This document shows positions 15,237-62,133 of a stretch of DNA of 64,000 bases, piece after piece. A model generated the notes under the pieces. It was not told the DNA's origin. It worked only from the letters and a program-made list of their open reading frames with translations, and made no database searches. The position numbers were made by a program, and so were the translations under genes. Source of the stretch: a virus; the IMG/VR virus record IMGVR_UViG_3300032180_000001, positions 96,001-160,000 of that record. One strand, given 5' to 3'. The stretch's first letter is position 1, and each line of letters opens with the position of its first letter.

Positions 15237-15430
15237 CGAACACACCCGGTCCGATCCTGCTCGAAACCTCTTCCGCTGACGTTAGCCTCAGTCCGGTCAC
15301 CCCAGAATCGTGCGATCGCTGCGGCCCAGCCGTCCGGGCGCTCTGGCAGGTCTCGGCCGGAACAGGAGTGCTGACCTTCTGCGGGTCGTGCTACCGGAGG
15401 TTCCGGAAGATAGCAGCGAGCCGGGAATGA
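15233..15430 (+). CDS. Small CxxC Zn-binding hypothetical protein
   Basis: CDRCG...FCGSC; GTGA and ATGA overlaps with its neighbours. Confidence 0.55.
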   Translation: MTNTPGPILLETSSADVSLSPVTPESCDRCGPAVRALWQVSAGTGVLTFCGSCYRRFRKIAASRE

Positions 15431-15521
15431 TCTGTTTCGTCCCTCGGTTACACCACCTCGTACCTCAGCACACCCCAGGCGAGACTCATCAGGAGTCGCC
15501 GAGAGAGCCGAGGAGAACAAG

Positions 15522-15995
15522 GTGCTATCAGCACTCGCAGCAATTTTCATCACAGTCCAGCCCGGAGACACGCTGTCCGGCATCGCCGTCAGTCACGGTG
15601 TGTCACTTGCCGCGGTGGAGGCGGCCAACCCCCAGATCGAGAACTTCAACCTGATCTACGCGGGCAACCGGGTCGCCATTCCGAAAGGGGGCAGCTACCA
15701 GGCGCAGCCTCAGCCGACCTACCGCCAGCCATCGCAGGCCCCGTCAAACAGTTACGGCGTTGCGGGCACAGGCGGCGGTTCCCTGTCGGATGTCCCGGGC
15801 GTCCCGTCGTCGTTCGCAGCATGCGTGGCCCTGCGAGAGTCGGGTGACGGGTCGGGCAGCTCGAACATCTACGGGATCATCCCTGGGAGCGGATACAGCG
15901 TCGCAGGTGACTCGCTAGCGCAGCAGAAGGCGGTGTTCGCCCAGATCTATCAGAGGTATGGAGTGACAGCCTGGCAGCCCTGGGACGGATGTTAG
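15522..15995 (+). CDS. LysM plus minimal lysozyme-like (Rpf/transglycosylase-like) protein
   Basis: LysM: TVQPGDTLSGIAVSHGVSLAAVEAANPQIENFNLIYAGNRVAIP. C-terminal CVALRESG...NIYG...QQKAVF...YGVTAWQPWDGC with catalytic Glu and a flanking Cys pair. Confidence 0.8.
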   Translation: MLSALAAIFITVQPGDTLSGIAVSHGVSLAAVEAANPQIENFNLIYAGNRVAIPKGGSYQAQPQPTYRQPSQAPSNSYGVAGTGGGSLSDVPGVPSSFAACVALRESGDGSGSSNIYGIIPGSGYSVAGDSLAQQKAVFAQIYQRYGVTAWQPWDGC

Positions 15996-16059
15996 AGTGG
16001 CCGAAAAGGCACTCCATCCGTTAACCTGTACCTGATGGGTCGTGGCTGACCCTGGGCAG

Positions 16060-16098
16060 AAGAACCACCGCTCCCCGTGTCAGGAGCGGTGGTTCTTT
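16060..16098 (+). terminator. Rho-independent terminator
   Basis: aagaaccaccgctcc-ccgtgtca-ggagcggtggttctt followed by t. Confidence 0.75.
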
Positions 16099-16183
16099 CA
16101 CGCTCGGCCCTCCGGATGGGGTATTATATGTGTAGCGGGTTTAGAGTGAACAACTAGTAAAGAGAAGGGGACGGGAAAGTAGC

Positions 16184-16432
16184 GTGCTGATAAAGCAGAA
16201 ATCTCATCCGATGCCCGATGAGGTCCTGCTGGTCGCCCGGATGGAAGCGGAAGACCGTCGCAAGACCCGGGAAGAGTACTATCACTGGCAGGAGCGGGAT
16301 CTCAGGATCCGGCTGGCGATCTACACCGACATCGTGACCGGAAAGCGCTTTCCTGCCGAAGGTCGCACCTACTACAAGGTCCGCATCGCGATGATCCGCA
16401 ACGAGCTGAAGGCGCGGAAGGCGGGGCCATGA
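16184..16432 (+). CDS. Hypothetical protein
   Basis: 82 aa ORF with purine-rich RBS; meets the minus-strand operon tail to tail. Confidence 0.55.
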   Translation: MLIKQKSHPMPDEVLLVARMEAEDRRKTREEYYHWQERDLRIRLAIYTDIVTGKRFPAEGRTYYKVRIAMIRNELKARKAGP

Positions 16433-16819
16433 CTAGTGCGGATACAGAGCCTTGCAGTCCCGCGGAGCGTCCTTGGCGTTCACGATCGCGCGCAGCTCGG
16501 TTACCTCCGCTATTATCTTCGGCGTCAGCTTTGCTCCCTTCGGCGTCGCATCAGAGAAAAATGCGCCCCAGAGAAGTTTATCTTGCGCTCGTGCACTATT
16601 ATTTTCCACGCACTGACTGTACTGAACGACCGCTTCACCGCTGTTCCCGTGAATCTGCCCGATCGTCAGGAAAACAACGATGATCGACAGTGCTACATCC
16701 AGGCAGATGGAAACAGCCAGCATCAGCGCGGTCTTCTTGCTGGCTTTGCCTCGCTGCAACTGCCCGATCAGCCTCATCGCCGTGCTGATCAGGGCCTCAT
16801 CATCCTCTTCCGGCTTCAT
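16433..16819 (-). CDS. Single-TM membrane protein with external Cys pair (paralog A)
   Basis: TAMRLIGQLQRGKASKKTALMLAVSICLDVALSIIVVFL...QC...DC. Confidence 0.7.
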   Translation of the reverse strand: MKPEEDDEALISTAMRLIGQLQRGKASKKTALMLAVSICLDVALSIIVVFLTIGQIHGNSGEAVVQYSQCVENNSARAQDKLLWGAFFSDATPKGAKLTPKIIAEVTELRAIVNAKDAPRDCKALYPH

Positions 16820-17214
16820 CTCGTCCCCTGTCCGTATACTTGCTGGCAGTCCACAGGAATATAAAGAGCTTCAACTACTTTCAGGAAAGATTTACCGAGC
16901 GCGTTACTATGAAAATCCTCAGTATTCAGTATCCACAGACTAACAAACTCCTGCTGAGTAGCATTGCTCTCATTGCAAATGGTCAGCTCCTGTGAGCGAA
17001 GTCGGTTTTCCTGATCAACAAGTCCGGAATTACTGTGCGACAACCCGACCCCGAGAAGTATCACCACAATGGAAAGCGTGACATCCAGAAAAATAGAAAT
17101 AGCGAGCAACAGCACAGTTTTCTTGCTGGCCTTCGTCCGCTGAAGTTTCTTTATCAACTCCATCGCAGTGCCGATCAGAACATCATCGGCGGGTTCCTCA
17201 GTTCTGTCCGGCAT
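16816..17214 (-). CDS. Single-TM membrane protein with external Cys pair (paralog B)
   Basis: TAMELIKKLQRTKASKKTVLLLAISIFLDVTLSIVVILL...IC...DC; RBS aggag before ATG 17214. Confidence 0.7.
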   Translation of the reverse strand: MPDRTEEPADDVLIGTAMELIKKLQRTKASKKTVLLLAISIFLDVTLSIVVILLGVGLSHSNSGLVDQENRLRSQELTICNESNATQQEFVSLWILNTEDFHSNALGKSFLKVVEALYIPVDCQQVYGQGTR

Positions 17215-17419
17215 CCGATCGCTCCTGCTCGATAACGCGCAGCATAATAGCCGCTGCCATCTTATCCCGATTCGGTTTCTTCGCATCCTCGCGAATCGAG
17301 ACCAGCAAGCTAATAAGCCGCAGCATATCTCCGTTCGTCAGTCGTCCTTCCTGATACCCTTCGAGCAGGCGATCAAGATCAGCCTTATCCGAATTAAGCT
17401 CGTCCACGATCACCGCCAT
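17198..17419 (-). CDS. Small helical protein, LDxLLE..AAAIMLR family, copy 3
   Basis: KADLDRLLEGYQEG...DKMAAAIMLRVIEQE; TAATG overlap with the upstream gene. Confidence 0.65.
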   Translation of the reverse strand: MAVIVDELNSDKADLDRLLEGYQEGRLTNGDMLRLISLLVSIREDAKKPNRDKMAAAIMLRVIEQERSDAGQN

Positions 17420-18264
17420 TATTTCCGCCCCAGCCGCAGGTACCACATCCGTGCGGACATCTCCCTCTCCGGAGCGAGAAAGGCTAGCGCCCAGGTGCCG
17501 AACCAGATAAACCAGCCCGCATCCCCAACGGACGGCTGACTCCAGCTCCAGTGCAGGATGGCATACGCGAACAGCGAATCAGAGGCCAGTAGCCCCAGTG
17601 CGCCGATGCTAATCAGCCAGAAGGAATTCGACACCCTCGTTCCGTGACGAAAATGCCGCATGGCCAGAACGATGGTGACCAGCGCGCAGATCTGCAGCAG
17701 CAGTAGAATGTCCGCCGTCGGATAGGCGATGGATACTACCTTGGCGATGGTCGAGGCGCCACTGGCATGCGCGTTAGGACTGATGAGGAGAGGCCAGGAG
17801 AACAGCCCGAAAGTAAGACCTGTTACCGCCACTGCCACCGCTGCGGCACGCCGGTTCACGTGGATGTTGCCGCCGCTGGCCAGCATCACCAGTCCGGCCA
17901 CGAAAAATACGTAGCTGCTCAGTTCCAGCGCGTCGGACAGCCCTGGATAAGGCACGCTGTCCGTGATCTTCGTGTAAGCGAGAGCCGTTCCAGCGCCCAG
18001 CAAGTTCAACGCCATCCCGACGAGCAGTAGCAGCCAGGCGAACTTCCGCCGACTGGGATTAAGCACGACGCCGAGGATCATCCCCGCTACGGCCAGTCCC
18101 AGAACCGGCATGAACCCCACCGTGATCCAGCCAGGCACTTTCGGCTGAATGTAGTAGGCGACGATGACCGCGATGTAGCCGAGAAGGAACAGCGCCTGCG
18201 CCTGGCTCAGGAAACCGGGCCAGGGCGCAGCTGGCTTTCCGGTGTCCGATGCTGAAATAGCCAT
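17419..18264 (-). CDS. Multi-pass membrane sensor-like protein with no cytoplasmic output domain
   Basis: About 8 hydrophobic helices with PYPGLSDALEL, SIAYPTADILLL, LLASDSLFAY and DAGWFIWF motifs, resembling the N-terminal TM input region of actinobacterial GGDEF/EAL proteins. Confidence 0.7.
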   Translation of the reverse strand: MAISASDTGKPAAPWPGFLSQAQALFLLGYIAVIVAYYIQPKVPGWITVGFMPVLGLAVAGMILGVVLNPSRRKFAWLLLLVGMALNLLGAGTALAYTKITDSVPYPGLSDALELSSYVFFVAGLVMLASGGNIHVNRRAAAVAVAVTGLTFGLFSWPLLISPNAHASGASTIAKVVSIAYPTADILLLLQICALVTIVLAMRHFRHGTRVSNSFWLISIGALGLLASDSLFAYAILHWSWSQPSVGDAGWFIWFGTWALAFLAPEREMSARMWYLRLGRK

Positions 18265-18530
18265 TACGATTCTCCATTCGCTTCCGGAACTACTCTTCTG
18301 GTGATCTGAACAACACGGCAGGGTGCCCCGCGGCAGGCTCTGGCGAGCTGTTTCGCCTCATCAAGCGTCAGCGGCCCCGTCAGTGAGAACCCGAGAAACG
18401 ATCTCACCTCGAACCCGGCTCCTCGCCACGCACCGAGAAGAAACCACTCGACATCATATTCTTCAGCCCAGCCAGCATCCGGCTCGATCTCGCGATCATC
18501 TGAACTGTCGTCTTCTCTCCATGCCTCCAT
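18264..18530 (-). CDS. Hypothetical protein
   Basis: 88 aa, translationally coupled within the operon. Confidence 0.5.
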   Translation of the reverse strand: MEAWREDDSSDDREIEPDAGWAEEYDVEWFLLGAWRGAGFEVRSFLGFSLTGPLTLDEAKQLARACRGAPCRVVQITRRVVPEANGES

Positions 18531-18555
18531 TGCGCACCTCCCCGCAGTTCTCTGC

Positions 18556-18771
18556 CTAGCTCAGCCATTTTTCCGTCTTCGCCTGCTCGATGAAACGTAG
18601 CATGATCGCCGCCGCAACCCTGTCCCCAGCGATAAAATCTTCTGCCACGCCGTTCATGATCCGCAGGAGCAGTCCTTTCAGCTCTTCCGTCTCCACAGGT
18701 ATCAGCTCGTCCCGGCCGAATTTCTCTAGCAAAGTATCCAGGCGCAGACGACTCGACGGGATAGCTGTCAC
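18556..18771 (-). CDS. Small helical protein, LDxLLE..AAAIMLR family, copy 2
   Basis: RLRLDTLLEKFG...DRVAAAIMLRFIEQ. Confidence 0.65.
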   Translation of the reverse strand: MTAIPSSRLRLDTLLEKFGRDELIPVETEELKGLLLRIMNGVAEDFIAGDRVAAAIMLRFIEQAKTEKWLS

Positions 18772-19268
18772 GACGAACCTGACTCGTCCTGGAAAAACTC
18801 TCTGCGCCTGACGGCAGCAATAACATACAACCCTCGCTCTGTCGGAATAGGGGCCAGTGTTATATCGACAGGAAGTTCCTGACCGCTCTTCGTCAGTAGC
18901 GAAAGAGCGAGGCCCGTGCCCATCGGGCGAATTACCGGGTTAGTCAGGTAAGCTTTCCGATGCGCCGCGTGCCCAGACCTCAGAACACTAGGTACCAGCA
19001 TATCTATCGACTCTCCGCGCAGTTGTGATCGGTAATAACCAGTCAGCAGCTCCATCTGACGGTTAACCAGGAAAATTTTTCCGGTCTCTCCCTCGACAAT
19101 GGTAATAGCATCCGGAAAATCATCGAATATCTTGATAGTCAGATCAGCGACGAAAACTATGTCAGTGCGAGGAATCTCCGGACGCAGCAGGAGATGCAGT
19201 ACAGGCACAACATACGTTTCAACCGAATTATCCGCCAATTCACTGCCTCCCTGTTCACTATTTGTCAT
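18768..19268 (-). CDS. Stand-alone PAS domain protein
   Basis: IFDDFPDAITIVEGETGKIFLVNRQMELLTGYYRSQLRGESIDMLVP...MG.GL.L..TKSGQELPVDITLAP. Confidence 0.9.
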   Translation of the reverse strand: MTNSEQGGSELADNSVETYVVPVLHLLLRPEIPRTDIVFVADLTIKIFDDFPDAITIVEGETGKIFLVNRQMELLTGYYRSQLRGESIDMLVPSVLRSGHAAHRKAYLTNPVIRPMGTGLALSLLTKSGQELPVDITLAPIPTERGLYVIAAVRRREFFQDESGSS

Positions 19269-19720
19269 GGCGAACCTGGCTTACCTGACGGACCATTTCG
19301 AGGCTCCCTGCGCCGAAGCGTAGCGATGACGAACAGGCCGTGCATTGTTGAAACGGGAGCGAGCATGATGTCCACCGGAACCTCCCGCCCGCTCTTCGTC
19401 TGAATCGAAAGATTGAGGTTGGCGCCCATCTGCCGGACCTTAGGATCAACCATGTACCCGGTTCGGTGCTCGAGATGCCGCGGACGGCGCTCTTGCGGCA
19501 CGAGCATGTCCACCGTCTGGTTGCGCAACTCGCTACGGTGATAGCCGGTCAGGAACTCAGCCTGGTCATTGACGAGCCGGATCCGGCCGGTTTCCCCGTG
19601 CACGATGATGATCGCATCCGGTGACTGCTGGAAAATCTGAACAGCCAGGTCGGCGGTGAAGCGGATATCTTCGGCGATCTGACCGATTCCGCGCTCGTCC
19701 TGGTAACTCTCTGTGCTCAC
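19265..19720 (-). CDS. Stand-alone PAS domain protein (paralog)
   Basis: IFQQSPDAIIIVHGETGRIRLVNDQAEFLTGYHRSELRNQTVDMLVP...TKSGREVPVDIMLAP. Confidence 0.9.
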   Translation of the reverse strand: MSTESYQDERGIGQIAEDIRFTADLAVQIFQQSPDAIIIVHGETGRIRLVNDQAEFLTGYHRSELRNQTVDMLVPQERRPRHLEHRTGYMVDPKVRQMGANLNLSIQTKSGREVPVDIMLAPVSTMHGLFVIATLRRREPRNGPSGKPGSP

Positions 19721-20395
19721 TTAAGTCTCGCCTTCTAGTACCCGGAGAATAATAACTGCTGCGATCCGGTTCCCCGTCGGTGCCTCCCGACTGTCCAGAA
19801 TCTCCCGGAGCATATCGGCTAGCGCCGCTTTCTCATTCGACGTAATGATCTGCGCCTGGTACCTTTCTAGCAAATTGTCCAGCTCCGGCGTATGCGGGCT
19901 GTGCAGAATGCGCGCGGCGTCATAGGCGACGTTCTTCCAGAACACGTCGATCTTGGTTTCCAGCACGCCAGTCCGGTCAGCAACCGTGCTCAGCCGGTCA
20001 GTAACTGACTGAAGCGAGGGCACGACCCGCCGGTTGATCTCGTCGACCTTGCCTTCCAGCGCTCCGGTTCGGTCAGAAACGAGATTGAGCTTGTCTGTTG
20101 CCGCAAGGAGTGCCGGAGCGACCCGGCTATTAATGTCGGCGATGTCCCGCTCGTTCTTCTCGATTTTGCTGATAAAGCCCTCTACCGAACTAGCCACTAC
20201 ATCCTTTGCGATGCCCTGTATCTGGGCAACACGATCCTTAGAGCTATCCCTTCTCCGAGAGTACAGAAAAGAGATAACAGCGACAAGAACAGCAGCTATC
20301 GCAGAAAGTATCGTGAGGATCTCGTAAAAAGCTACACCGCCGGACGAAGAAGATGCTGCCGCATCAGCCACCGTCAGTATCAGACCGCCTGCCAC
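19721..20395 (-). CDS. TM plus coiled-coil protein ending in LDxLLE..AAxIxLR domain (copy 1)
   Basis: One TM helix, heptad repeats, then HSPHTPELDNLLERY...NRIAAVIILRVLE. The start at GTG 20395 follows an RBS and the leader hairpin. Confidence 0.7.
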   Translation of the reverse strand: MAGGLILTVADAAASSSSGGVAFYEILTILSAIAAVLVAVISFLYSRRRDSSKDRVAQIQGIAKDVVASSVEGFISKIEKNERDIADINSRVAPALLAATDKLNLVSDRTGALEGKVDEINRRVVPSLQSVTDRLSTVADRTGVLETKIDVFWKNVAYDAARILHSPHTPELDNLLERYQAQIITSNEKAALADMLREILDSREAPTGNRIAAVIILRVLEGET

Positions 20396-20420
20396 GCCCA
20401 GATTCCCTTCGCTCGCAAGG

Positions 20421-20444
20421 GACCGGCTCCAGCAGGCCGCGGTC
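20421..20444 (-). promoter_or_regulatory. Conserved late-leader hairpin copy
   Basis: GACCG-CGG-CC-ugcu-GG-AGC-CGGUC downstream of TACGCT. Confidence 0.7.
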
Positions 20445-20631
20445 ATATACGCTTAGCGTAGCGTACCTGTCTAGTACAGTCTAAGCCTCGCTCGCGGGGG
20501 ATGATCCTTCCGGCGGAACGGTGAAATCGCGGTCACGTACCCAGCCCTGCCGTTCGAGGAGGACGGCCATCTCCTCGCTTACCACCGGCTTCGCGTGCAC
20601 CGGCCCGTCCCGGAAGTCCATGCCTGGCAGT

Positions 20632-21712
20632 TTACAGGTCGTCTAGCGCCCGCAGCAGCTTCCTGGCGTTCGCTTCGAAAGTTCTGTCGGCAACAGCTTC
20701 CCGCGCCTGCTCCGCTATCTTGCCCCGTTCTGCCTCGTGCGTGATATACCAGTGCAGGATTTCGCTGGCATCTTCCGGGTCGGTGAACCGCGGCAGCATG
20801 TGCAGCACTTCGTCTCCTTCCGGGCGCGCGTCCCGAAGGAAGGGCAATCCGATGGCCGCCATCTCTACCTCGCGCGGCCCCATGGCCCAGCCCTGGCCAG
20901 CGTAGGCGTCTTCGGACTCACGCCGGTACAGATTGATCCCCATCTTTGCGTGCCGGTACAGCTCCGCCGTTTCCGTGTTGTCCACACAGGTATCGCGACC
21001 GTGCCCGATATACTTCCGCAGCCTGCTGTCCGGTGCCAGCTCCTCGTCCCAGTAATTGCCGCCAAGCAGCACGTCGAGGTTCCCCAGATCGAGGCGCTCG
21101 AAAAACTCGGCACGGCTCTTGAAGCAGGTTCCGATGAAGGTCAGATCGGCAGCCAGCTCCGGGTTCACCGGCCCGCGCCGAGGGTAGTGCACGTCCGGGC
21201 GGTACGCGTGCGGCATGTACAGCGCCGGGCCAAGTTCCCGGTACGCAGCGATATTAACTGGATCGTTGAGGAGGTTCAGGTCAGCATGCTGAGCCCGGTC
21301 CAGTTGCTCTCCGTCCTGATAAGTAAGGCGATTCTGTATGAAGGATCACTTGCTTCATTTTCCGTAGCTTGAAAAGCTGGAACATGCCCCCGGTAATAAA
21401 GAACCCGGACACGTACAGAATAACGTCAGGCCAGAAAGTCATCGCCGCGTGGGTCAGCCCCTGCATCGACATGACGATGGCGTCCTTTTGACTCTTCACG
21501 GCCTGCTCGACGACAGGAAGCCCCTGTTCGTCCGTCACAATGTTGCCATGCTCATCTGTTTTCGGAAGAAGAGCCTTGGAATAAAACACGAGCCGATCGT
21601 TCAGGTTATACATAAGGACCTCATTGCCCAGCTCGCGCAATGCATCAGCCCATCCGTAGTAAACATCAGCAACCGAGAAGTCCGGGCCGGGGTGACATAT
21701 CAGAATACGCAC
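20632..21712 (-). CDS. CgeB/GT-B-like glycosyltransferase split by a +4 nt discontinuity at a UUA codon (21325-21319)
   Basis: The N-part (MRILICHPGPDFSVADVY...HTESPY) and C-part (QDGEQLDRAQHADLNLLND...DLTFIGTCFKSR...MGPREVEMAAIGLPF) are in different frames, joined at CCT TAC T TAT CAG. Confidence 0.8.
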
Positions 21713-21821
21713 AAAACCACCTCCTCCCGATGACACACTCGAAATTTTATGGTACGATTTATTCGGCTCGGTAGCACCGGTCAGGGGTACTTCCGAGCCT
21801 GATCGCATCGGAGGTGCGACT

Positions 21822-22355
21822 ATGCCTGATCATACACAGGCGGAGCGCTGGCTGCCAGTGCCGGGGTACGAAGGATTCTACGAGATCAGTAATCGCGGTC
21901 AGGTCCGCAGCATCCGCCACATGACGCAGGCCGGATGGCGCGGTGGCAAGCTGCTCTCACCGTTCCTCGATGCCGATGGGTACTTGCGTGTCAACCTCAG
22001 TCGTTATGGTGCTACTCGAAGTGTTACCATCCACACTCTCGTGCTGACAGCATTCGACCGTCCCCCTGCAAGCGGGGAGCAAGGCAGGCACGGACTCGGC
22101 GGGAAAACTGACAACCATCTAGAGAACCTGGAATGGGGAACGCCACAGGAAAACAGTGACGATAAATACAGAGACGGCACGATGGCCTGTGGCGAGAAGC
22201 AGGGAAATTCAAAACTTACCGCTACTGATATAAAATCAATCAGAACTCGTCGTGCTGCCGGGGAGGAAGCAAGTTCACTAGCTCTTAACTTTAAAATAAG
22301 TGAGACACATGTAAACCGAATCGTAAAGCGTGAATCGTGGCGTCACATACCGTAG
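21822..22355 (+). CDS. NUMOD4-HNH endonuclease with C-terminal HTH
   Basis: ERWLPVPGYEGFYEISNRGQVRS...HTLVLTAF...HGLGGKTDNHLENLEWGTPQENSDD. Confidence 0.9.
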   Translation: MPDHTQAERWLPVPGYEGFYEISNRGQVRSIRHMTQAGWRGGKLLSPFLDADGYLRVNLSRYGATRSVTIHTLVLTAFDRPPASGEQGRHGLGGKTDNHLENLEWGTPQENSDDKYRDGTMACGEKQGNSKLTATDIKSIRTRRAAGEEASSLALNFKISETHVNRIVKRESWRHIP

Positions 22356-22365
22356 CTCAGTACAT

Positions 22366-23851: not shown

Positions 23852-24001
23852 AACCGGCCCTTACCGCTGGTGCGAGGACCCGCTACCCGGAGCATGACCA
23901 CTGTGCCCGACGGAGTGAGGATCTGCGGGACAATACCCCAGCAGTTGGTCGTCGTCAGCACAGGTCTCGTCCTGTCCACACCAGAGCCTCCTGTTCGAAG
24001 T

Positions 24002-28907: not shown

Positions 28908-29867
28908 TAACCAGCATGTTATACAGACGAGTCCATTACCACCGTTCCCGCCTGCACCGCCTGTAACTCCACCGCCTCCGCCTCCGCCGCCACAGCCGAT
29001 AGCACCATCGCCACCACGGCCACCGATACCAGCGCTAGCCGATCCGCCACCCGTTCCCCCGAAGAATACCCAGGTTAGATTGGTATAACTAGCTCCGGAC
29101 ACTCCGGCACCTCCCCCGCCTGCGACCCCGGTACCCCCAGGAAAATTAGCCGGAAAAAAATTAGGCCCTACACCTGAATATGTATTCGAATACGGTGTTA
29201 TACTACCGCCATTTGTATCGCCATTTGCAGCTGATGCGCCCCCTCCGCCGCTGCCTCCGGTTGTCATTATTCCGCCTGCAGCAAGAGTCACACCTGTAGC
29301 ATTTCCTGTTCCATTCCCGCCAGCGGAGGCGGAGGCGATAATGGAACTAGCTGATACCATCCCGACCATACCATAACCAGCATAAGACTGACTTCCATTT
29401 TCACTAGCCCCAGCTGCACCGCCCACACTAGCTGTCCCGGCTGATCCGAAAGCTGCCGACTGGTTTGAATTAGTTACAGCAAGAGCAGGGGCCTGACCGC
29501 CTATATTACTGCCGCGCATGATGTCACCAAATAGTCCTACGGCAGTAACATCGCCCGAAGAGCCGTTTGAACCAGCCGCACCGCCCGCACCGCCAGTCCC
29601 TGCATAAACATATAGAGAGGCAGGCAAGAGAAATGCCGGGACCAGGTACCGTACAGATGCCCCGGCGCCGCCACCGCCTCCGCCGCCACGTAGTGTAGAA
29701 GTGGCTCCAGAATAGCCTCCTCCGCCACCAGCCCCGGGTCCGATCAGCATCATCCAGACCATGGTAATCCCTTTTGGTTTTGTCCATATCTGACAGGAGT
29801 TTAGACCGATATTGTAAAACACCTGCTGCCGGTCACCTGTATCTGGCCAGCCAAAAAAATCAGGCAT
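28908..29867 (-). CDS. Glycine-rich virion protein; stop lost, so it reads through a TTA into the HNH ORF
   Basis: WTKPKGITMVWMMLIGPGAGGGGG...GGNGGNGLVCITCW, then TTA GGA instead of a stop. Confidence 0.75.
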
Positions 29868-36966: not shown

Positions 36967-37917
36967 CTAAACGGCGATGTTAAAGACTGCGGTAACGAGT
37001 GCTCCACCAGGTGTCGCCCAAAGGATCGTATTCCCGGTGAAGTACTGAGTCCCGTTGAGGCGAGCATACCAGGTGCGATTCGGCGTTTGCACGCACCACA
37101 CCAGATCAGCCGTCTCGGCAGTAGCGGTCAGGTCGGCTACCTTGTCCGTTCGCTCCGTTTCACTAATGCAGAGCTGCGCATCCGACGGAAGAGTCTGGGT
37201 CGTGTACCACTCGATTCCGTCTGCGCCCGGGGTTGTAGCCGGCCAGCGATGACCTGGAGTAGTAACCGACGAGTGCGAGGGGCCGTCCATCCGGATGACA
37301 TCGTAAGGACCGTCGTGGAAAACGTGCACCGATGTAACGGGCTGCCATTCCGCTTGCCCGGTAACCGTGTTCAGAGTCAGGCAGATATCGCCAGGGATTA
37401 CCTCGTCGTAACGAAGCCAGCCGCGCTCCGTCATAATTTCAGTATCCGGGCTAACGCAGAACGTTCCGGCCGTGACCGTTTGCGATCCGCCGAAGTAGTT
37501 GAAGCAGAGGCCCTGTTGTGCCGTGCCCGCCCCAGTAATGGTATTATCGTATACCAAACATCCGTAAAAACCGGTCAGCGTTACCGTTCCGCCGCCTGGG
37601 GTGTTTGCCGCCGTAAAGCAGATAGAACTAGAACCGGTGTCGATGGCGAATGCCTTGCCGGTGAGCGCGATACCACCGGCCGCCCAGTTTGTGCTAGTGA
37701 CCTCATTACCAGTGACCCACTGGGCGACAGCGTAGGCTGAGTTGGCAACCGAGACTGTCTTGTCCGGCGCCGTGGTGTTGTTGAATAGCGCGACTTTAAT
37801 CGAGTCGGCGGACAGGCTGCCATAAGTAGGCGGGGCTGCGGTAGTCCAGCACCTGCCCAGAATTGGGTTAAGCGCGGCCTGCTGGAAAATAGCCGATCCT
37901 GCGGTGGCCCAGCTCAT
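36967..37917 (-). CDS. Virion structural protein containing a mini-intein
   Basis: The extein is a paralog of 30661-31128; a Hint domain interrupts ...AGTF|TILW. Confidence 0.8.
   Translation of the reverse strand: MSWATAGSAIFQQAALNPILGRCWTTAAPPTYGSLSADSIKVALFNNTTAPDKTVSVANSAYAVAQWVTGNEVTSTNWAAGGIALTGKAFAIDTGSSSICFTAANTPGGGTVTLTGFYGCLVYDNTITGAGTAQQGLCFNYFGGSQTVTAGTFCVSPDTEIMTERGWLRYDEVIPGDICLTLNTVTGQAEWQPVTSVHVFHDGPYDVIRMDGPSHSSVTTPGHRWPATTPGADGIEWYTTQTLPSDAQLCISETERTDKVADLTATAETADLVWCVQTPNRTWYARLNGTQYFTGNTILWATPGGALVTAVFNIAV
37030..37458 (-). mobile_element. Mini-intein (143 aa, no endonuclease)
   Basis: Starts CVSPDTEIMTERGW; block B TTPGHRW; ends DLVWCVQTPNRTWYARLNGTQYFTGN followed by Thr. 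Confidence 0.9.
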
Positions 37918-37924
37918 AATCGCA

Positions 37925-49943: not shown

Positions 49944-50789
49944 TTAACTAATCCTACCCTCAAATGACTGTTCTGTCATTGAGAGCCTTTCATCGAGAAG
50001 CGACATAGCATAAATATCATACTCGTCTAGATCAAAATCAAAGATACTAATATTCTCCTGAAGCCGTTCAAATGTACCTGTCTTCGGAATCACCGAATTA
50101 CCAAGCTGCAAACTCCAACGCAGTACTATTTGTGCTGGGGACCGCCCATACTTGCTCGCAATAGAAACTAGTATCGGCGAATCAAGATTCTTTCTTCCCC
50201 GACCAAGCGGACCCCATGCCTGGGTAATAATATCAAACCTATTATGAAAAGTTCGTTGCGCAGCCTGGGGACACCAAGGATTTAGCTGTATCTGATTCAC
50301 GGAAGGCGGAGTAGAAGCATAACTAAGAAGACAGGTAAGATCATCAAACTTAAAGTTAGAAACACCGATACTCCGGCATCTGCCATCATTCAGAAGCCGT
50401 TCAAACGCCCGCCACGCTCCCTTGGTCAACGCTACCTCCATCCTGGGCCAGTGCATCAAGTAGAGATCAATCACGTCAAAGCCAAGACGTATCATACTGG
50501 CATCGAATGCCCGAAGCGTAGAATCGTACCCGTCCGCAGCCCATACCTTACTCGTAACAAATAGCTCATCACGAGGAAGTCCCGATTCAGCAACAGCCCG
50601 ACCTATTCCCGCCTCATTGCGATACTGATCGCTCGTGTCGAACATTCGGTATCCGATATTTATAGCCTCGCCAACTATAAGTTGAGCCTGATCATCGGAC
50701 AATTTCCACGTACCTAGTCCAAAATTTGGCATAGCCCTACCAGAGTTAAGTTGGACTGTCGGAACCACCGTTACTGTCATCCCAGCCAC
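49944..50789 (-). CDS. Aldo/keto reductase (AKR5/DkgA-like)
   Basis: GLGTW...GYRMFDTSDQYRNE...LFVTSKVW...DLYLMHWP...IGVSNF...NQIQ...QIVLRW...VIPK. Confidence 0.95.
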   Translation of the reverse strand: MAGMTVTVVPTVQLNSGRAMPNFGLGTWKLSDDQAQLIVGEAINIGYRMFDTSDQYRNEAGIGRAVAESGLPRDELFVTSKVWAADGYDSTLRAFDASMIRLGFDVIDLYLMHWPRMEVALTKGAWRAFERLLNDGRCRSIGVSNFKFDDLTCLLSYASTPPSVNQIQLNPWCPQAAQRTFHNRFDIITQAWGPLGRGRKNLDSPILVSIASKYGRSPAQIVLRWSLQLGNSVIPKTGTFERLQENISIFDFDLDEYDIYAMSLLDERLSMTEQSFEGRIS

Positions 50790-54027: not shown

Positions 54028-54031
54028 GTCC

Positions 54032-55042: not shown

Positions 55043-55044
55043 GC

Positions 55045-55353: not shown

Positions 55354-56170
55354 GTCGGGTCACCGTCTCCAAAGCCTCGCGCACCTCATCAGGATAATTC
55401 TCGACAACGAACGCGATAAGGTCTGAAACCCGCTGCCCCCGCGGCTGGCGCTGGTTCGTCCACAGTTCCAGGTTCTCCGGCCGGTTGTCGCTGCGGATAC
55501 CGTTCTTGTGATGCGGTTCCTCGAACGTGCGCAGCTCGCGCCCGAGCATCTGCTCCATCACTAGCCGATGCTCCAGGATCGGGCGACCGTTCCGACGCTC
55601 GGGTGACATCCTGTAGCCATCGGTAGTGGTATATCCCTGGCTCTTGCGAGGCTGCGCGCCCCACTTGCCTTCCGGATCGCCGGTAAGCTTCCACCGACTA
55701 TAGTGCATCCGACACCAACCGCGTGACGTAGCCTGCCTGGGACACTCTTCAATAGAGCAAGACTTACCCTTGTACTTAGACTTACGTTCCTGCTGAGGAG
55801 TAACTAGCTCCGGTCCCCCAGGATCTCCGGTTCGCCGTACGCGGGCGTAATGCCCCTGACAGTAACCGCGCGCTTTAGCAGGATTATCACAGCCTCCTAC
55901 CGAGCACTCCGCACCTGGATTCCAGATCCGAGTAGGTTCTGGCGTCCCCCGTCGCTGCACTCTCATATAATGCGCTTTGCAGTAACCCTTGGCGTAGGGC
56001 TTTTCATCGCAATCATCAGCCTGGCATTCGGAAGCCTGCCGTACATACTCCCGCAACGGATGCAGTGGCTTACCACTCATGAACTGCTTATAGTGCTGCG
56101 TACAGTAACTACGACTGTAGTACGGCCTGCCGCAATCCTCGTAGTCACAGATTCGATCTGAGGCTGGCAT
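55346..56170 (-). CDS. HNH endonuclease with four CxxxxC..A(K/R)GYC..HY repeats
   Basis: ILEHRLVMEQMLGRELRTFEEPHHKNGIRSDNRPENLELW. Confidence 0.9.
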   Translation of the reverse strand: MPASDRICDYEDCGRPYYSRSYCTQHYKQFMSGKPLHPLREYVRQASECQADDCDEKPYAKGYCKAHYMRVQRRGTPEPTRIWNPGAECSVGGCDNPAKARGYCQGHYARVRRTGDPGGPELVTPQQERKSKYKGKSCSIEECPRQATSRGWCRMHYSRWKLTGDPEGKWGAQPRKSQGYTTTDGYRMSPERRNGRPILEHRLVMEQMLGRELRTFEEPHHKNGIRSDNRPENLELWTNQRQPRGQRVSDLIAFVVENYPDEVREALETVTRHE

Positions 56171-56328
56171 CTCCTGGTGTGTCCTTCCGTGAGATGGTAC
56201 GAAGGCAAACGGCATCTGCACCGTGCGCCTCCTAAACTGTACCATCTCACGGACTGACATGTAAATCCCGACTTTCCCCTGTCCGACCTAATCGAACGAG
56301 TTCTCGAAAAAACTCTTTGAACTGCTGA

Positions 56329-57582
56329 TCAGGTAGAAGCTCCCTTAAAGAGCTTCACGGCGCCGGTGCGATCGACCATAGTCCCATCACCACGGAGGAT
56401 GGCCCTAAATGTCACGAGATCAGTGGAAAATGCGAAATCATCGCTACGCTCGAAGCGGACCCCGCCGACGAGCCGGACGAAATACTGGCTGAAGTCACCG
56501 AACGCGATGGGGGTCGCGCCGGTGGCGAGAGCGGGCATGAACGGGTCCGCGACGAGGGGCTTGCCGAGTAGCAGGTCGGGCGATCCGAGCACCGCGGAGG
56601 GCTCCCAGATCGGCCTGCCTACGGTGTCCGTGATCTTGCGGAATCCGCCGATGGTCTTGTCCGCCGCGAGCCAGTAGCAGCTGCGTGACTGACGATACGG
56701 TGCGATGACCGAGTACTCCAGGTCCACCAGGTTGGCGTAGCTGGGGGCACCCGCAACGCCGGTCGTAGCGCCGGTGACGCCGACCGAGTTGTTGATGATC
56801 CCGTAAGGCTGACCGGAACCGGTGCCGTTCACCAGGTCGGTGCCGAATGCGTTGCCCAGCGCGCGGCCGGCCTGCATGGCGAGATAGCCGAGCAGGTCGA
56901 CGGCAGTGTCATCGATCAGCTCGCGAGCCACCTGCAGCATGATGCCGTACTTGTAAGCCGACAGCTGCTGCATGCTGAACGCCGGGTCGGAGGTAGCGAG
57001 GGCACCCGCCTGGGCCGCCGACGCCGCCGTGGAGTGCGCGGTCGTCTTCGGCACCTGCAGCGTCTCGCCGCCCCCGGTGTTGAGCACCGTAGGACCGCAC
57101 TGCATGACCCCGGACACCTCGATGAGGTGCGCGATGAGCATGTCGTAGAAGTCTGTAGGCACAATGCTCGACGCGTTGGTGCCCTGTGTGCCTGTGGTCA
57201 GGACACGATAGTTGACCGGACCGCGGGCACTGGTGTCGTGCCGGAATTCCATCGCCCGGGGTGCGCCATCCTCGCCACGCGCCCACTTGCGGAATTCGCC
57301 TTCCAGGCCCTGCATCGCTGCCGGGACCGGGCGCTGATCGGCTGGCTTGCCGGAAAGCGCATCATAAGCAGCGTCCGCATCCTTGGCCCTCTTCTCGGTG
57401 TCGAGAACGGCCTTGATGCGAGTATCGAGGGTACCCATCTCCTCCTGCATGGCGTCCCAGCGGCCCTGCTCTTCGGGAGTGAAGGCCCTGTTCTCCTCGG
57501 CCGCGGTCTCGGCGATCTTCCTTGCCTCGTTCCAGACGCCGAGACGCCGGTCACGAAGCTTCTTCGCAACTTCACTAGCCAT
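56329..57582 (-). CDS. HK97-fold major capsid protein (with delta domain)
   Basis: Coiled-coil N-terminus, then IVPTDFYDMLIAHL...LSAYKYG...LLGKP...FGDFS...F.TDLVTFRAILRGDG. Confidence 0.95.
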   Translation of the reverse strand: MASEVAKKLRDRRLGVWNEARKIAETAAEENRAFTPEEQGRWDAMQEEMGTLDTRIKAVLDTEKRAKDADAAYDALSGKPADQRPVPAAMQGLEGEFRKWARGEDGAPRAMEFRHDTSARGPVNYRVLTTGTQGTNASSIVPTDFYDMLIAHLIEVSGVMQCGPTVLNTGGGETLQVPKTTAHSTAASAAQAGALATSDPAFSMQQLSAYKYGIMLQVARELIDDTAVDLLGYLAMQAGRALGNAFGTDLVNGTGSGQPYGIINNSVGVTGATTGVAGAPSYANLVDLEYSVIAPYRQSRSCYWLAADKTIGGFRKITDTVGRPIWEPSAVLGSPDLLLGKPLVADPFMPALATGATPIAFGDFSQYFVRLVGGVRFERSDDFAFSTDLVTFRAILRGDGTMVDRTGAVKLFKGAST

Positions 57583-57638
57583 AGCTAGCCCCTCCTTCTA
57601 CGGGGGATCGGTTGAAACACCCACATCGGATGTCTCGG

Positions 57639-57682
57639 TACCGGCTCCGTCCGCACCCTGGAAGGGCAGCTACGGCCTCGGA
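57639..57682 (-). promoter_or_regulatory. Variant late-leader hairpin upstream of the major capsid gene
   Basis: CCG-AGG-CC-long inner stem-GG-AGC-CGG (AGG in place of CGG). Confidence 0.55.
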
Positions 57683-57712
57683 AATTTTGTTGTCAGCTAC
57701 CTGCGCGGACTG

Positions 57713-58726
57713 CTAGATCTCGTCTGCGTAGGGGTCTTCCTGGTTGGCCTGCAGCGCGAGCATGGCCTGCGCCCCGGACAGCACCGGCTTGGGCGGCGGC
57801 TTCGGAGCCGGGATGTTCCGCTTGTCCGGGCCGATATTGTCGGTACGCTTGAAGAATTCGAGTACACGCCCGTCGTTCACCCTGGAACGAACTTCCTCGA
57901 CGTCGGCCTGCACCCAATTGGCGAGGGATTCGACCGCACCGTTCATGGCCCTGGCTGCGGCCGTCGCGTCGGGGTAGGCCGGGTCGAGCACCGGCGCCAC
58001 GTCGACGAGCTGCACGGACACGAGGGTCCGCATCGGGAAGTTGAAGTCCGTGACGCCCCATTCGTCACCGCCGGGGAAGACCCGGAATGCAAAGCTGGAA
58101 TGCCGGACGTCTCCGCGATCGACGTATTCGAGAATGTCAGCCCGGGACTGCGGCGGCAGGACGTCGTAGAGAAGGCCCTGCTGATCGACTCGAAGCGAGA
58201 GCGTGTTGGCGTGCGTGGTGCCAAGTAGCAGGTCATCCTTGTGGTTGAATCGGCACACGACATCCGGCCAGTTCTCAGTGCGCGACTGGTCGAAGGCGGT
58301 AGTGTCGACCTGCTCCACGAAGCCGCTCATCCGTCGGGACAGCTTGTTGAAGCACGCGGCGTAGCCGTAGATACGCTTCGGACCACCGGAATGCTCTTCC
58401 CTGGTCTCCAGCGGGAACTTGGTGAACCGGCGCTCCGGCCACGCATCACCCGAGGTGGTTGCCCCGAGAGCGTCACGCTGCGCTCCCGACACCTTGATGC
58501 CGAAACGCCTCGCGGCCGTCATGATCTTCGGCATTGCCTGCTTGCCGAACGGAGACTGCGGTGCCCGCGCGAGAGCATTACGAGCATGTGCCTCATCATG
58601 CACCGGGAAATGCCGCTTGCTTCGCGGCGATGTCCGACCTGACGGGTCCTTTATGCCACCCGGCTCGATAAATGCGAATGCGCTGTCTTCGAGGTCGTTG
58701 ATTGCTTGAGATGATAGTGTGCTCAC
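57713..58726 (-). CDS. HK97 prohead protease with an N-terminal small extra domain
   Basis: IYGYAACFN...FVEQVDTTAF...CRFNHKDDLLLGTT...RGDVRHSSFAF...LVDVAPVLDPAYPD. Confidence 0.92.
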   Translation of the reverse strand: MSTLSSQAINDLEDSAFAFIEPGGIKDPSGRTSPRSKRHFPVHDEAHARNALARAPQSPFGKQAMPKIMTAARRFGIKVSGAQRDALGATTSGDAWPERRFTKFPLETREEHSGGPKRIYGYAACFNKLSRRMSGFVEQVDTTAFDQSRTENWPDVVCRFNHKDDLLLGTTHANTLSLRVDQQGLLYDVLPPQSRADILEYVDRGDVRHSSFAFRVFPGGDEWGVTDFNFPMRTLVSVQLVDVAPVLDPAYPDATAAARAMNGAVESLANWVQADVEEVRSRVNDGRVLEFFKRTDNIGPDKRNIPAPKPPPKPVLSGAQAMLALQANQEDPYADEI

Positions 58727-58755
58727 AGATCTTCCTTCCATGTTATACTTAGGTC

Positions 58756-59448
58756 ATGACCAGTGGACGTAACCCTGACTACATCCCGGGCAAGACCTGC
58801 GAGAACTGCGGGAAGCCTATTCCGTGGCGTCCCGGGATAGAGGTGCGAGCGAGAGCCCGCTGGTGCAGCAAAGACTGCTTCCAAACCGCTGGACGCGATG
58901 CTGCACCTAAGCCGTGTGAAAACTGCGGCAAGCCAATCCCGTGGCGGGAAGGCCGCGCAGCCCGTACTAAGGCTCGCTTCTGCTGCGACGCCTGTAAATT
59001 CGCTTGGCAGAAGCTCCACCCGCCGAATCCACGACAACCTCGGGAAACGAAGCCATGCGACACATGCGGCAAGCCTGTCGAGTACCTTCCATCCCAGAAG
59101 CTGGCAAGTAAGTACCCGAACGGAAACATCTACTGCTCCCGAGAATGCTTCGGTATCGGGCATTCTAAAACCATGACGGGACGCCGTCCCAGCGGAGGCA
59201 TCTATACCTCGCCCAGCACCTTCCGACTGATGATCCGACGCGAATTCTTCGACCGCTGCGCCATCTGCGGCTGGGACACAACCCCGTGCGACGTCGCGCA
59301 CATCATCGATCGGAAAGACGGCGGACCCGACTCGCTGGAGAACGTTGTGATGCTGTGCCCGAACCACCACCGGGCCTTCGACATGAAGTTGATCCCCGTC
59401 GAGACAATCCGGCTGGCACGAGAAACGATCCTGCGTAATCATCAGTGA
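58756..59448 (+). CDS. HNH endonuclease with CxxC..CS Zn-finger repeats; probably leaderless
   Basis: CAICGW...DVAHII...GGPDSLENVVMLCPNHHRAFD; TGtTATACT 6 nt before the ATG. Confidence 0.88.
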   Translation: MTSGRNPDYIPGKTCENCGKPIPWRPGIEVRARARWCSKDCFQTAGRDAAPKPCENCGKPIPWREGRAARTKARFCCDACKFAWQKLHPPNPRQPRETKPCDTCGKPVEYLPSQKLASKYPNGNIYCSRECFGIGHSKTMTGRRPSGGIYTSPSTFRLMIRREFFDRCAICGWDTTPCDVAHIIDRKDGGPDSLENVVMLCPNHHRAFDMKLIPVETIRLARETILRNHQ

Positions 59449-62133
59449 TCACCGTGCCCGTTTCCGTTACCATTCATTGATCCGGCCAGGACTGACCGCT
59501 CCGCATCGGACGGTATCCACGCCCCAACGTATTCAGGCTCGACCTTTTCCGCACGAGCCCGTCCTTCACGCGCCAGCGCCCGCAGGACAGCTATCAGACC
59601 ATCCGTGGACAGATCTCCGGCATCTCGCGTCTTCGTCAGAACGGCTGCAAGCAATGATGCGGGAGATTTCGCAGACGGCTCAATATTAGGCTGCGCGATA
59701 CCTTCCTGCTGAAGCTTTTCCAGCCGGTCTGCGGCTAGGTCCATCTCCAGCGTAATCTGGGGAAGCATGGAGTTCGGAATGCCGCGAATAGAGTGAGCCA
59801 TCGCGACCATGACATCCGCCGGGATAACCTCATTGCCTGCCCCGCCTGGAAGTGGCCCCATGTCTTCCTTCTCGCGAATCTCGTCGATGGTCAGGATCCC
59901 CGTGTCCCGCTGAGACTCGTAGATCTCCGTCCGGGTCTTCAGATCAGTCTTCAGCAGCGCGTCAGAATTAAAGCGAACGTACCGGTTAGCGGGAATAATA
60001 TCGAAGAACGCGGTCTCTAGCCTAACCATCCACGGACGCAAGGATTCAATGACCTGAAGGGTACTCATCTCTACCGTGTTGCCAGTAAAATAGCAGGTGC
60101 CGTTCCGACGCGCATACCAAGACTTACTTGGCGTACTTACACACCATACAAGATCTGTAACCTCGTCGGTCACGTACTCCGGATGACCCTTCGGCTTACG
60201 CCACGGTGAAATCTGAATCGGCATAACATACATACCATGCTTATTCGGTCCCCGTACCACGCCCGAGCGTCCAGACAGTGCGCAGGCAACCTGGAACGCA
60301 TCAAGCCGCGCTTTATCCTTCTGTGCCATCGTCCAACTTGCGGCATGCCGAGAGCCATCAGCATCGAGGGACGTTTGAATGAAAAGCTCAAGCTGTGCCC
60401 TGGTAAGCTGGCTCAGAAATTCCGTAGAAACTACCTTAGCAGGAGCATGCTTTGTCAGCACCTGCCCAGCTTGCGCGTTCAACCTGAAATGCACGTGCCC
60501 CCGCTCGTCCAGGTCTTCCTGCCATGCCGGACCGCCATCGTGCTGTCCCGTAAGACCATTTCGCAGATTTCGCACCACACTCGCGTGTGAACCGCACTTC
60601 CGAGCTATTCCCCGATTCGTCCCACTCGGATCACGAAGTAGCTCAACCCGGATAAGATCCCGCTTCTTCCGCCCACGCCCGCCTAGCAACGAAACGCCAC
60701 GCTCTACAGCACTTGGCCCAAACATCTCCGTCAGCGCTGCCCTAATCCGCATTACGTTCAGCGGGTTCACTCGCTCCGACTGAGCAATTGTCACGGCACC
60801 TGATTCCCCGATCCATCCCTCTGTCCAGAACCAAGCCACCAACTCAGCTAGTGCGTCCGACCACTTCGGCTCTACCGGAGTCACAACCGGAGCCGCCGCG
60901 CAGACCCGCGAATTAATCGGCATAGTTTCTGTAGTTCGCCACTGGTAACCTTCGTTTCTGCGCCTTTCCCCAGACAACATCACAGGCCAACGATGATTTG
61001 GCGTGGTTACCGACGAATGTGACAGGTTCTCCAGGCGGATAACCGGATAAGACGCGTCATCAAAAACATGTACCTTTTGAACTGGCTGCCATTCAGCCAT
61101 ACCCGTTTCAGTATTCAGTCCAAGACAAGTGTCCCCGGCAAGCACCTGATCGTGCCTCAGCCAACCGCGCAAGGTTAGGATTTCCGTCTCAGCATCAGCG
61201 CAGTTGTAGGTTAGACTGTCAGCCCTTTTCCCGCCAACGCGATCCGGAGGAAGCCCATAAATGGCAGCAAGCTGGGTAGCGCTAAACTGCTGACTCTCGA
61301 TGAATTGAGCTTCAGACGGCGGAACTGTTATCGGCTTGTATTCCCAGTCTCGACCGTAGACGAGTGGCGTATGGTTCCGGATCGCATCGACTAGCTGCTC
61401 CTTGATCTGGTCAGACGCATCCTTATCCACTTCCAGCTGATTATTCTGAAAGGTGCCTGGTGGAAAACCACCGGAAGCGAACCAGTCGTTGCCAAACCGC
61501 TGGGCTTCCGTTCCCGACGAGATCGTCAGCATGAAATGCCGTAGCGGAGAAATACCCTCCGTACGGCCGGGGAGCGTAAATGCCCGGATATGAAAAAGCT
61601 CGTCACGCCAGTTTTCAATCAACCGTCCGTAGACGTACACCCGGGTACGAAGGGGATTCCATGGCTGCTGCGGGTCATCAATGACGTTAACCATGTCCGG
61701 CGGAATCCAATCGATTCCAGTCGGGTAACTAAAGCCATCGCGACCGGTGACGAAACCCCAGGCGTTTCCGTGCAGGAGCAGTGATGTCATGCACTGGTAC
61801 ACCCAGTCAAAGGTGTTCGCGCTGACTGATGGCCGATCAAAAATAGACGGTCCCCAGTACCTGGCCGCAACGCCACCGCCGGGGGCTCGTGTGTAAAGCT
61901 TGATTGGCAGGCTGGCGAGAGATTCGGCTAGCAACCGGACGCAGGAATAGAGTGCCGGAAGACCGAGTGCCTGATCCTGGCCGTAGAACGCCCGGGACGG
62001 ATGAATCGGCCCACCTTGCGAAAATTTGAAGTAAATAGGGTGAATCCCATGGACGAATTAATCGCCATGGAACTCCGCCGATAACGCGCTGCTCAACACT
62101 TCTGTCAGCCAAGATGCGATCAAGGAAACCCAT
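59442..62133 (-). CDS. HK97-type portal protein, needing a +4 nt recoding event at 62037-62031 and intein excision
   Basis: N-part MGFLDRILADRSVEQRVIGGVPWR(LIR)PWDSPY joins FKFSQGGP...ALGLPALYSCVRLLAESLASLP...LLHGNAW...GISPL...QLAAIYGLPP...|intein|...TIDEIREKED. Confidence 0.88.
60078..61202 (-). mobile_element. Intein with LAGLIDADG endonuclease and an HTH-like insert (375 aa)
   Basis: CADAETEILTLRGW...TTPNHRW...AWFWTEGW...SLDADGS...DLVWCVSTPSKSWYARRNGTCYFTGN followed by Thr. Confidence 0.92.

Follow-up and report, generated by a model that had tools for sequence, protein, structure and literature searches.

How can a gene be translated in full when its reading frame is broken at an in-frame TTA codon? 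Two such genes, encoding an HK97-type portal protein and a CgeB-like glycosyltransferase (GT), lie in a 64-kb stretch of phage DNA (hereafter, the window), which comprises bases 96001-160000 of the 184,980-bp IMG/VR virus record IMGVR_UViG_3300032180_000001 (GC content, 59%; completeness by CheckV, 99%). The minus strand of the window carries the structural module of a tailed phage, composed of a tape measure gene of more than 3000 codons and genes for the portal, an S78 prohead protease, and an HK97-type capsid. A first-pass annotation had described both breaks as a Tyr codon, an in-frame TTA, and a synonymous Tyr codon located 4 nucleotides (nt) downstream, and its coordinates proved exact for both genes. 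Comparative analysis argues that the portal and GT proteins are produced through short-range, UUA-triggered bypassing with tRNA re-pairing, a reading to which the sequences lend a probability of roughly 0.8; this value covers the bypass mechanism alone and not its regulatory role. The features concerned are the following:

59442..62133, minus strand: HK97-type portal gene; +1 frame matches Pfam Phage_portal with E=1e-52; a 4-nt hop is required at codon 33/34
62031..62037, minus strand: portal bypass site B; putative take-off TAT 62037-62035, hungry TTA 62034-62032, landing TAC 62033-62031
61837..61839, minus strand: stop of the dead-end frame-0 product (102 amino acids, aa) if the TTA of site B were decoded normally; open reading frame (ORF) 61837..62145
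20632..21808, minus strand: CgeB-like GT gene; Pfam Glyco_trans_1_2; needs a 4-nt hop at codon 162
21319..21325, minus strand: GT bypass site; putative take-off TAC 21325-21323, hungry TTA 21322-21320, landing TAT 21321-21319

The portal gene begins with an ATG at 62133, behind a ribosome-binding site rich in GGAGG. From this ATG, frame 0 reads MGFLDRILADRSVEQRVIGGVPWRLIRPWDSPY, passes through TAT 62037-62035 and TTA 62034-62032, and ends at the stop codon 61839-61837. The +1 frame, which holds the Pfam domain, is closed by a TAA about eight codons upstream of the TTA, and its first ATG, GTG, or TTG comes no earlier than 61934. In homologs, the N-terminal region forms part of a single protein (MGLIERIQADR..GGVPWRPWDSPYWKFSQGGP and, likewise, MGLIERIQADR..RVIGGVPWRPWDSPYWKFSQGGPVHP), and joining the two frames of the window at DSPY|FKFSQGGP by skipping 4 nt reproduces this N-terminus (read-through translation P0122). 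The homolog P0055 carries DSPYFKFSQGGP, to which the hop product DSPYFKFSQ is identical over the stretch. Because the landing TAC lies 4 nt past the take-off TAT, decoding would resume at TTC 62030-62028, giving the arrangement TAT-[T-TAC]-TTC. An element of the form TAT-T-TAY is found at the same codon in the portal relatives L003, L118, and L133 (TAT-T-TAC in L003 and L118).

The GT gene is broken in the same manner, with a 175-codon frame on one side of the junction and the Glyco_trans_1_2 domain in the +1 frame on the other. The site reads CCT TAC TTA T CAG (21328-21316); decoding would resume at CAG 21318-21316, and frame 0 meets a stop at 21283-21281. When the 4 nt are skipped (P0121), 92% of the length of the protein aligns to more than 100 single-ORF CgeB-like proteins of approximately 350 aa; as these homologs align from residue ~30, the true start of the gene is probably near 21712. 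The restored junction (..TESPY-QDGEQL..) falls in a near-invariant motif, TESPYQ[DE], which is ungapped and identical in 43 of the 45 homologs shown, with one conservative substitution in each of the other two. The junction peptide expected from a hop, with a single Tyr, is ..TESPYQDGEQLDR...

Four large relatives of the phage (G001-G004; 140-210 kb, 68-70% GC) provide an independent view of the GT gene. In G001, the gene is broken at the same Tyr, in the form CCT TAT T TAC CAG, such that the two Tyr codons are swapped with respect to the TAC-T-TAT of the window; on the sequences, this exchange reads as covariation that keeps the Tyr/Tyr pair. Together with the portals of L003, L118, and L133, it bears out the expectation of the first-pass annotation that a TAY-T-TAY gap would recur in related phages, and such conservation across genomes marks the 4-nt inserts at the two window sites as genuine rather than as assembly errors. 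The GT genes of G002 and G003 carry TTA gaps at codons other than that of the window, namely AAT-TTAC-GAC at residue ~70 in G002 and CGA-TTATC-CGG in G003. The latter gene also contains a compensating +1 change without a TTA, GAT TTT C TCC (L168, about 1545-1560), located 100 nt upstream of the TTA gap. This site may represent a U_UUC slip; thus, not every recoding site among these phages is TTA-triggered.

In the proposed mechanism, short untranslated gaps in the portal and GT mRNAs would be bypassed by ribosomes. With the rare Leu codon UUA in the A site, decoding would be slow, its cognate tRNA-Leu(UAA) being scarce or absent. The P-site peptidyl-tRNA (Tyr on UAU or UAC) would then un-pair, the mRNA would slide by 4 nt, and the same tRNA would re-pair with the synonymous Tyr codon that overlaps the UUA, allowing translation to resume in the new frame and to yield full-length portal (..DSPY-FKFSQGGP..) and GT. 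The rarity of TTA, on which the first-pass annotation had made its proposal depend, is pronounced: it is the rarest sense codon of the genome, with 82 occurrences among 57,197 codons in a crude ORF set and 10 among 28,486 (0.35 per 1000) in ORFs of at least 300 codons. In these long ORFs the next-rarest codon reaches 3.05 per 1000, and TTA itself occurs off-frame at 11 per 1000.

The portal family offers a large set of natural variants at the same position. Approximately 160 loci encoding portal relatives were collected from soil metagenomes and IMG/VR with an alignment as the query, single-protein queries having returned few, and the DNA between the conserved ..VPW and GGP.HP motifs was cut out to give 93 distinct 5' segments. 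The canonical 36 nt (R-P-W-D-S-P-Y-W-K-F-S-Q) are present in 49 of these, none of which contains an in-frame TTA. A further 39 segments carry 2-23 extra nt, at up to two sites each, and in all but one of them (38/39) the extra block begins with an in-frame TTA that immediately follows a sense codon. The remaining five segments, of 27, 39, or 42 nt, have no TTA gap. Downstream of this hot spot, TTA is absent from the portal genes altogether (0/39,744 codons).

These segments were analyzed with a mechanical solver that decodes normally until it meets a trigger codon in frame and from there moves ahead by 1-15 nt, to a codon matching the previous one at two or more of three positions; a stop-free result of 36 nt was required, and the consensus peptide was not imposed. 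With TTA as the trigger, 35 of the 39 segments resolved to 36 nt, and every one of the 35 yielded [RKQ]PW..P. With any of the 63 other codons as trigger, at most four of the 39 were resolved, and in none of these four did the consensus appear. The comparative data thus strongly support the earlier proposal that a TTA-triggered break is repaired by re-pairing on a matched codon. Representative gaps from the family are as follows:

CGA take-off: CGA[TTAC]CGC; CGA[TTATCT]CGC; CGA-TTA-A-CGC (G004/L021)
Other take-offs: TCT[TTAGGTAA]TCC; TGG[TTACCC]TGG; CAG[TTAC]CAG
2-nt gaps: AAT[TT]AAT; TTT-TT on a U5 run

At the 5' end of the L078 portal, CGA-AAAC-CGC stands where others have CGA-TTAC-CGC, the same 7-nt design with AAA for TTA; this variant could be due to another codon being hungry, to decay of the site, or to an error.

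Altogether, 46 hop events were reconstructed. The landing codon agrees with the take-off codon at two or more of three positions in 43 of them, against some 16% by chance, although this count carries some selection bias, the best solution having been chosen for each; the two codons specify the same amino acid in 33 events. Between 2 and 13 nt are skipped, most often 7, and ten of the gaps are in-frame. Among the 40 gaps with at least 5 skipped nt, 25 present a TAA or TAG at once in the +1 frame, which excludes simple +1 frameshifting there, and in L098, L127, and L142 two compensating sites are separated by a TAG. The third base of the take-off codon is A or U in 32 of the 46 events, and that of the landing codon is C in 21. 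Since I:A (as at CGA) and G:U wobble pairings are weak and C-ending codons pair more strongly, we infer that P-site pairing is weak at take-off and stronger at landing.

A second TTA in the portal gene of the window (62061-62059), which the first-pass annotation had placed between matched Arg codons, is indeed flanked by CGA and CGT. This site A and its surroundings comprise:

62053..62064, minus strand: portal site A, in-frame; take-off CGA 62064-62062, gap TTAATT 62061-62056, landing CGT 62055-62053
62042..62075, minus strand: predicted hairpin with the site A gap in the loop and CCAUGG palindromes paired; fold z=-2.2 over 100 nt
62076-62073, minus strand: Shine-Dalgarno (SD)-like GGAG upstream of site A, seen in the sequence

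A hop at site A would give the consensus WRPW and ordinary decoding WRLIRPW; CGA-UUAAUU-CGU is an in-frame version of the device at site B. A TTA gap occurs at this position in 21 portal family members, and several flanking characters accompany it. The take-off Arg is CGA in 19 of 19 carriers and in four of 36 canonical segments (Fisher p=3e-11), and an SD-like motif (GGAG, GGGGG, and similar) lies ~8 nt upstream in 16 of 21 carriers and in 12 of 49 others (p=1e-4), both p-values overstating independence because the sequences are phylogenetically related. The flanking Pro-Trp is encoded by CCATGG upstream in 7/21 carriers vs 1/49 and downstream in 7/21 vs 0/49, and where both copies are present they can pair into a hairpin whose loop holds the gap.

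Beyond these two genes, a homology-based census of frame breaks in five genomes returned 12 breaks between adjacent high-scoring segment pairs, seven of which have an in-frame TTA at the junction. Chance would place a TTA at ~1% of junctions, given its frequency of ~0.5 per 1000 codons in these genomes; the first-pass annotation had proposed to look for an enrichment of this kind. A search of the window's genome with the four relatives as queries recovered the GT break only, the 33-codon head of the portal being too short for a search of this type, which accords with the earlier statement that the portal and GT breaks are the only two clear ones. One of the seven TTA breaks of the census, GCC-TTATC-GCC in G004 (G004:147934; L192 about 7900-7950, minus strand), is new and affects a gene other than the portal and the GT.

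The tRNA genes of the relatives are also informative. Each of G001-G004 encodes 33-39 tRNAs covering nearly all codon families (e.g., L195:12787-19515 and L177:7540-15285), including readers of the rare A-ending codons AGA, AUA, AAA, CAA, GAA, ACA, CCA, GGA, UCA, GCA, and GUA. Neither anticodon UAA nor anticodon UAG is present in these four sets, which thus contain no tRNA-Leu(UAA) and no tRNA-Leu(UAG). The lack of a UUA reader is consistent with phages in which UUA is kept "hungry".

What the sequences show directly is the anatomy of the sites, together with the way it is conserved and covaries over many independent phage genomes; from this we infer a ribosomal mechanism, for which several alternatives must be weighed. 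In a +1 frameshift at the hungry UUA, the tRNA-Tyr would stay in place, the first U would be skipped, and UAY would be read by a new Tyr-tRNA, producing ..DSPYYFKF.. and ..TESPYYQD... Hungry-codon +1 shifts are well known, and both window sites have the form NNN-U-UAY, so the correct frame would be restored without a stop. Programmed shifting of the prfB or hungry-codon type would nevertheless find no re-pairing (UAU to AUU, UAC to ACU), would add a residue to the near-invariant GT motif, and would leave both the Tyr/Tyr pairing and the swapped form in G001 unexplained; moreover, the stops that follow at once in the +1 frame of most longer gaps mean that sister elements at the same hot spot would need another mechanism. 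We consider this alternative improbable. Transcriptional slippage is ruled out, as no homopolymer runs occur at the two window sites, and quadruplet decoding by the variation in gap length. For a metagenome-derived contig, indels from sequencing or assembly might come to mind, as might a defective phage with decayed pseudogenes, yet inserts of this type recur in dozens of sequences assembled independently, nearly always open with an in-frame TTA, and come with matched flanking codons and compensating pairs, while the remainder of both genes is intact and conserved in a nearly complete genome; an artifact or decay is very improbable.

Some observations weigh against bypassing. RNA folding of portal site B and the GT site revealed no structure that stands out (z=+0.5 to +1.5), and the whole 185-kb record contains zero tRNA genes despite its high CheckV completeness. 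Three or four members of the portal family (L045, L078, L094, and L140) do not follow the rule, and the shared ancestry behind the Fisher tests applies here as well. Finally, at 4-nt gaps of the form TTAY, a +1 shift with UAY decoded as an extra Tyr restores the same frame as a hop; there, the only grounds for excluding it are that the GT motif is nearly invariant and that the longer gaps offer an analogy.

As to the host, a nucleotide search against isolated phages gave no close match to the genome, and the nearest cultured portals in a protein search were all from actinophages, at 36% identity or less. The genome also encodes a WhiB-family protein (G000:C1:37858-38055, L209; 45 bits, above the Pfam cut-off). 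The WhiB gene and these distant portal relatives together indicate an actinobacterial host. Among 401 actinomycete-class genomes searched, portal matches were distant only and support no inference about the host; two unpublished genomes, G006 and G029, contribute to none of the conclusions drawn here.

UUA-triggered bypassing has a precedent in terminase genes, where it was proposed by Smith et al. (2013, J Bacteriol) and supported by Antonov et al. (2023, RNA Biol; PMC10732093), the work to which the first-pass annotation had pointed. Blocks of 10 nt and 7 nt would be bypassed in phiHau3 and the prophages StrepC.1 and S. catenulae, corresponding to three of 100 terminase genes examined. As in the present analysis, the case was argued from conservation of the junction, and for phiHau3 ter g6/7 mass spectrometry detected the junction peptide from an E. 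coli construct in which the UUA had been changed to a UAA stop (PMC10732093). In the published model, bypassing takes place when the cognate tRNA is not functional and yields a lytic protein (PMC10732093). The "inverted logic" that the first-pass annotation had put forward, in which scarcity of the UUA reader permits the hop, is therefore the model already published for the phiHau3 terminase. Its authors described the hypothesis as "mostly languishing unknown" (PMC10732093). A literature search did not find portal or GT cases of UUA bypassing.

The present genes share with the phiHau3 terminase an in-frame, rare UUA right after the take-off codon, a short non-coding block whose removal restores a conserved junction, and a landing codon. 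In both systems an essential actinophage morphogenesis gene is involved, and the proposed logic is a hop when the cognate tRNA is lacking. An upstream SD-like motif and a stem-loop, suggested as stimulators for the terminase, may act likewise at site A of the portal. The differences are equally clear: the genes are portal and GT here and terminase there; the window gaps are 4 nt long with a landing codon that overlaps the UUA, and the family skips 2-13 nt rather than 7-10 nt of non-coding sequence; and a 12-codon hot spot with no more than two sites per gene is occupied in ~40% of a large uncultured family, compared with 3/100 terminases. The present genome is, in addition, 185 kb long with 59% GC, and its host is placed only as far as the actinobacteria. 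UUA bypassing had already been proposed for terminases, and what is new here is its probable extension to portal and GT genes and to shorter gaps.

Bypassing is also known from more distant systems. T4 gene 60 has a UAG stop after the take-off codon, a 50-nt gap, a nascent-peptide signal, and a take-off stem-loop. There, too, the peptidyl-tRNA un-pairs at take-off and re-pairs at a matched landing codon, and a hairpin can enclose the gap; a bypass of this type was rejected for the present genes, which have a rare sense codon in the A site and gaps of only a few nt, instead of a stop codon, a gap of ~50 nt, and a take-off hairpin. Short hops at hungry or stop codons in E. coli, including "forward hops" of +2, +5, and +6, were reportedly described by Weiss et al. 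in 1987 and by Gallant and Lindsley as low-efficiency reporter events. They resemble the present elements in their sizes (2, 4, and 5 nt) and in the re-pairing of the P-site tRNA on an overlapping or near-adjacent matched codon with the A site empty, and differ in that here the element is conserved in essential natural genes. The byp elements of Magnusiomyces capitatus mitochondria, attributed to Lang et al. in 2014, are likewise said to be bypassed inserts, mobile, GC-rich, and 27-55 nt long, in a mitochondrial code context and without a UUA trigger. They too are numerous, are distributed over protein genes, and have matched codons for take-off and landing.

Three other TTAs that the first-pass annotation had linked to the recoding system do not belong to it. 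At 23853, the TTA merely overlaps the ATG of the next gene, which shares its frame with the ORF before it; that upstream ORF is closed by a TAA, and a bypass at this position was rejected. The TTA at 28910 is an ordinary in-frame codon of a 495-aa ORF with no change of frame, and that at 15448 sits in an unsupported intergenic upstream ORF ahead of a LysM gene. Several of the few in-frame TTAs in the genome directly precede a stop codon, as part of a TTATGA whose internal ATG is the start of the following gene; these TTAs are probably imposed by the stop/start overlap and are not recoding sites. They are located at:

Window 37917-37922: TTATGA stop/start overlap
Genome positions 50408, 85522, 162040, and 174708: TTATGA stop/start overlaps

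Coding frames around every TTA were also scored by codon usage (log-likelihood ratio), but the noise of this measure was too great for it to establish additional sites. Of the candidates in the genome, those at 12194 and 61945 were set aside, as they resemble adjacent genes or off-frame TTAs, leaving positions 14106, 57808, and 74489 as candidate breaks. For 14106 and 74489, both outside the window, the coding-score evidence is weak. The first (G000:C1:14106, L212) reads CAG-TTATCCTCGC-CAC and leads from a Clp_N-domain ORF into an ORF that ends with a WLKAVPWQP tag; the second (G000:C1:74489, L213) reads GAT-TTAGCGTC-GGC between two ORFs without a Pfam match.

The portal gene contains one further feature of note, which is separate from the recoding:

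60078..61202, minus strand: intein-like insertion in the portal; residues 310-684 of P0122, ~375 aa; starts with Cys and ends ..GN followed by Thr

This insertion splits the conserved stretch DSLTYN|TVEQSTLQ. A Pfam search of the insertion gave no intein match; at the corresponding position of the portal, the homolog P0071 carries intein/LAGLIDADG domains recognized by Pfam.

Whether bypassing also serves as a switch is a separate matter. Output could be set by the charging of the host's UUA-reading tRNA, such that late structural genes would be gated by the physiological state of the host; we advance this role only tentatively. The form of the switch envisaged in the first-pass annotation, under bldA control in developing Streptomyces, is conjectural, since the host is placed no more narrowly than as actinobacterial and 49 of the 93 portal family members lack a gap. 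Around one-fifth of the family's gaps are in-frame, and ordinary decoding there gives no "dead frame", which weakens the case for a strict on/off switch. Bypassing might instead be constitutive and non-regulatory, in a host that always decodes UUA poorly, with near-neutral gaps tolerated and then tuned for efficiency; this possibility, which opposes a regulatory role and not the bypass mechanism, falls a little short of even odds. It would account for gap lengths and positions that vary freely, for gaps that stay in-frame, for the 49 of 93 portal family members that are gap-free, and for a genome of 59% GC with no bldA link. It sits less well with the clustering of gaps in late morphogenesis genes and at gene 5' ends, with the co-variation of the CGA take-off, SD-like motif, and hairpin arms with gap presence, with large phage tRNA arrays that omit exactly the UUA reader, and with the regulatory model published for phiHau3.

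A broader possibility, which we regard as speculative and rather unlikely as a whole, is that an entire family of large soil actinophages uses UUA gaps as a distributed sensor. Several late genes, namely portal, GT, and further genes in relatives, would respond jointly to the charging state of the one host tRNA that reads UUA, a tRNA that near-complete phage tRNA arrays would deliberately omit. At 5'-proximal hot spots, gaps would be gained and lost quickly, with tuning by weakly pairing CGA or NNU take-offs, more strongly pairing NNC landings, the SD-like motif, and hairpins. If so, nature would have supplied in these gaps a series of mutants from which the rules of short-range bypassing can be read.

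The prior basis for UUA bypassing consisted of three terminase genes and heterologous data from E. coli. To these, the present analysis adds two other genes of one phage and, through the portal family, ~46 naturally varied events that differ in codon pairs, gap lengths, and frames and include compensating pairs. TTA frame breaks in actinophage genes should accordingly neither be annotated as pseudogenes nor be "fixed" as sequencing errors. The comparison also offers rules for such sites: take-off codons that for the most part pair weakly (CGA via I:A wobble, or U-ending), landing codons that mostly end in C, a frequent stop in the +1 frame, and an SD-like motif ~8 nt upstream. With these in hand, the question of whether phages read the tRNA status of their host to time virion assembly becomes testable.

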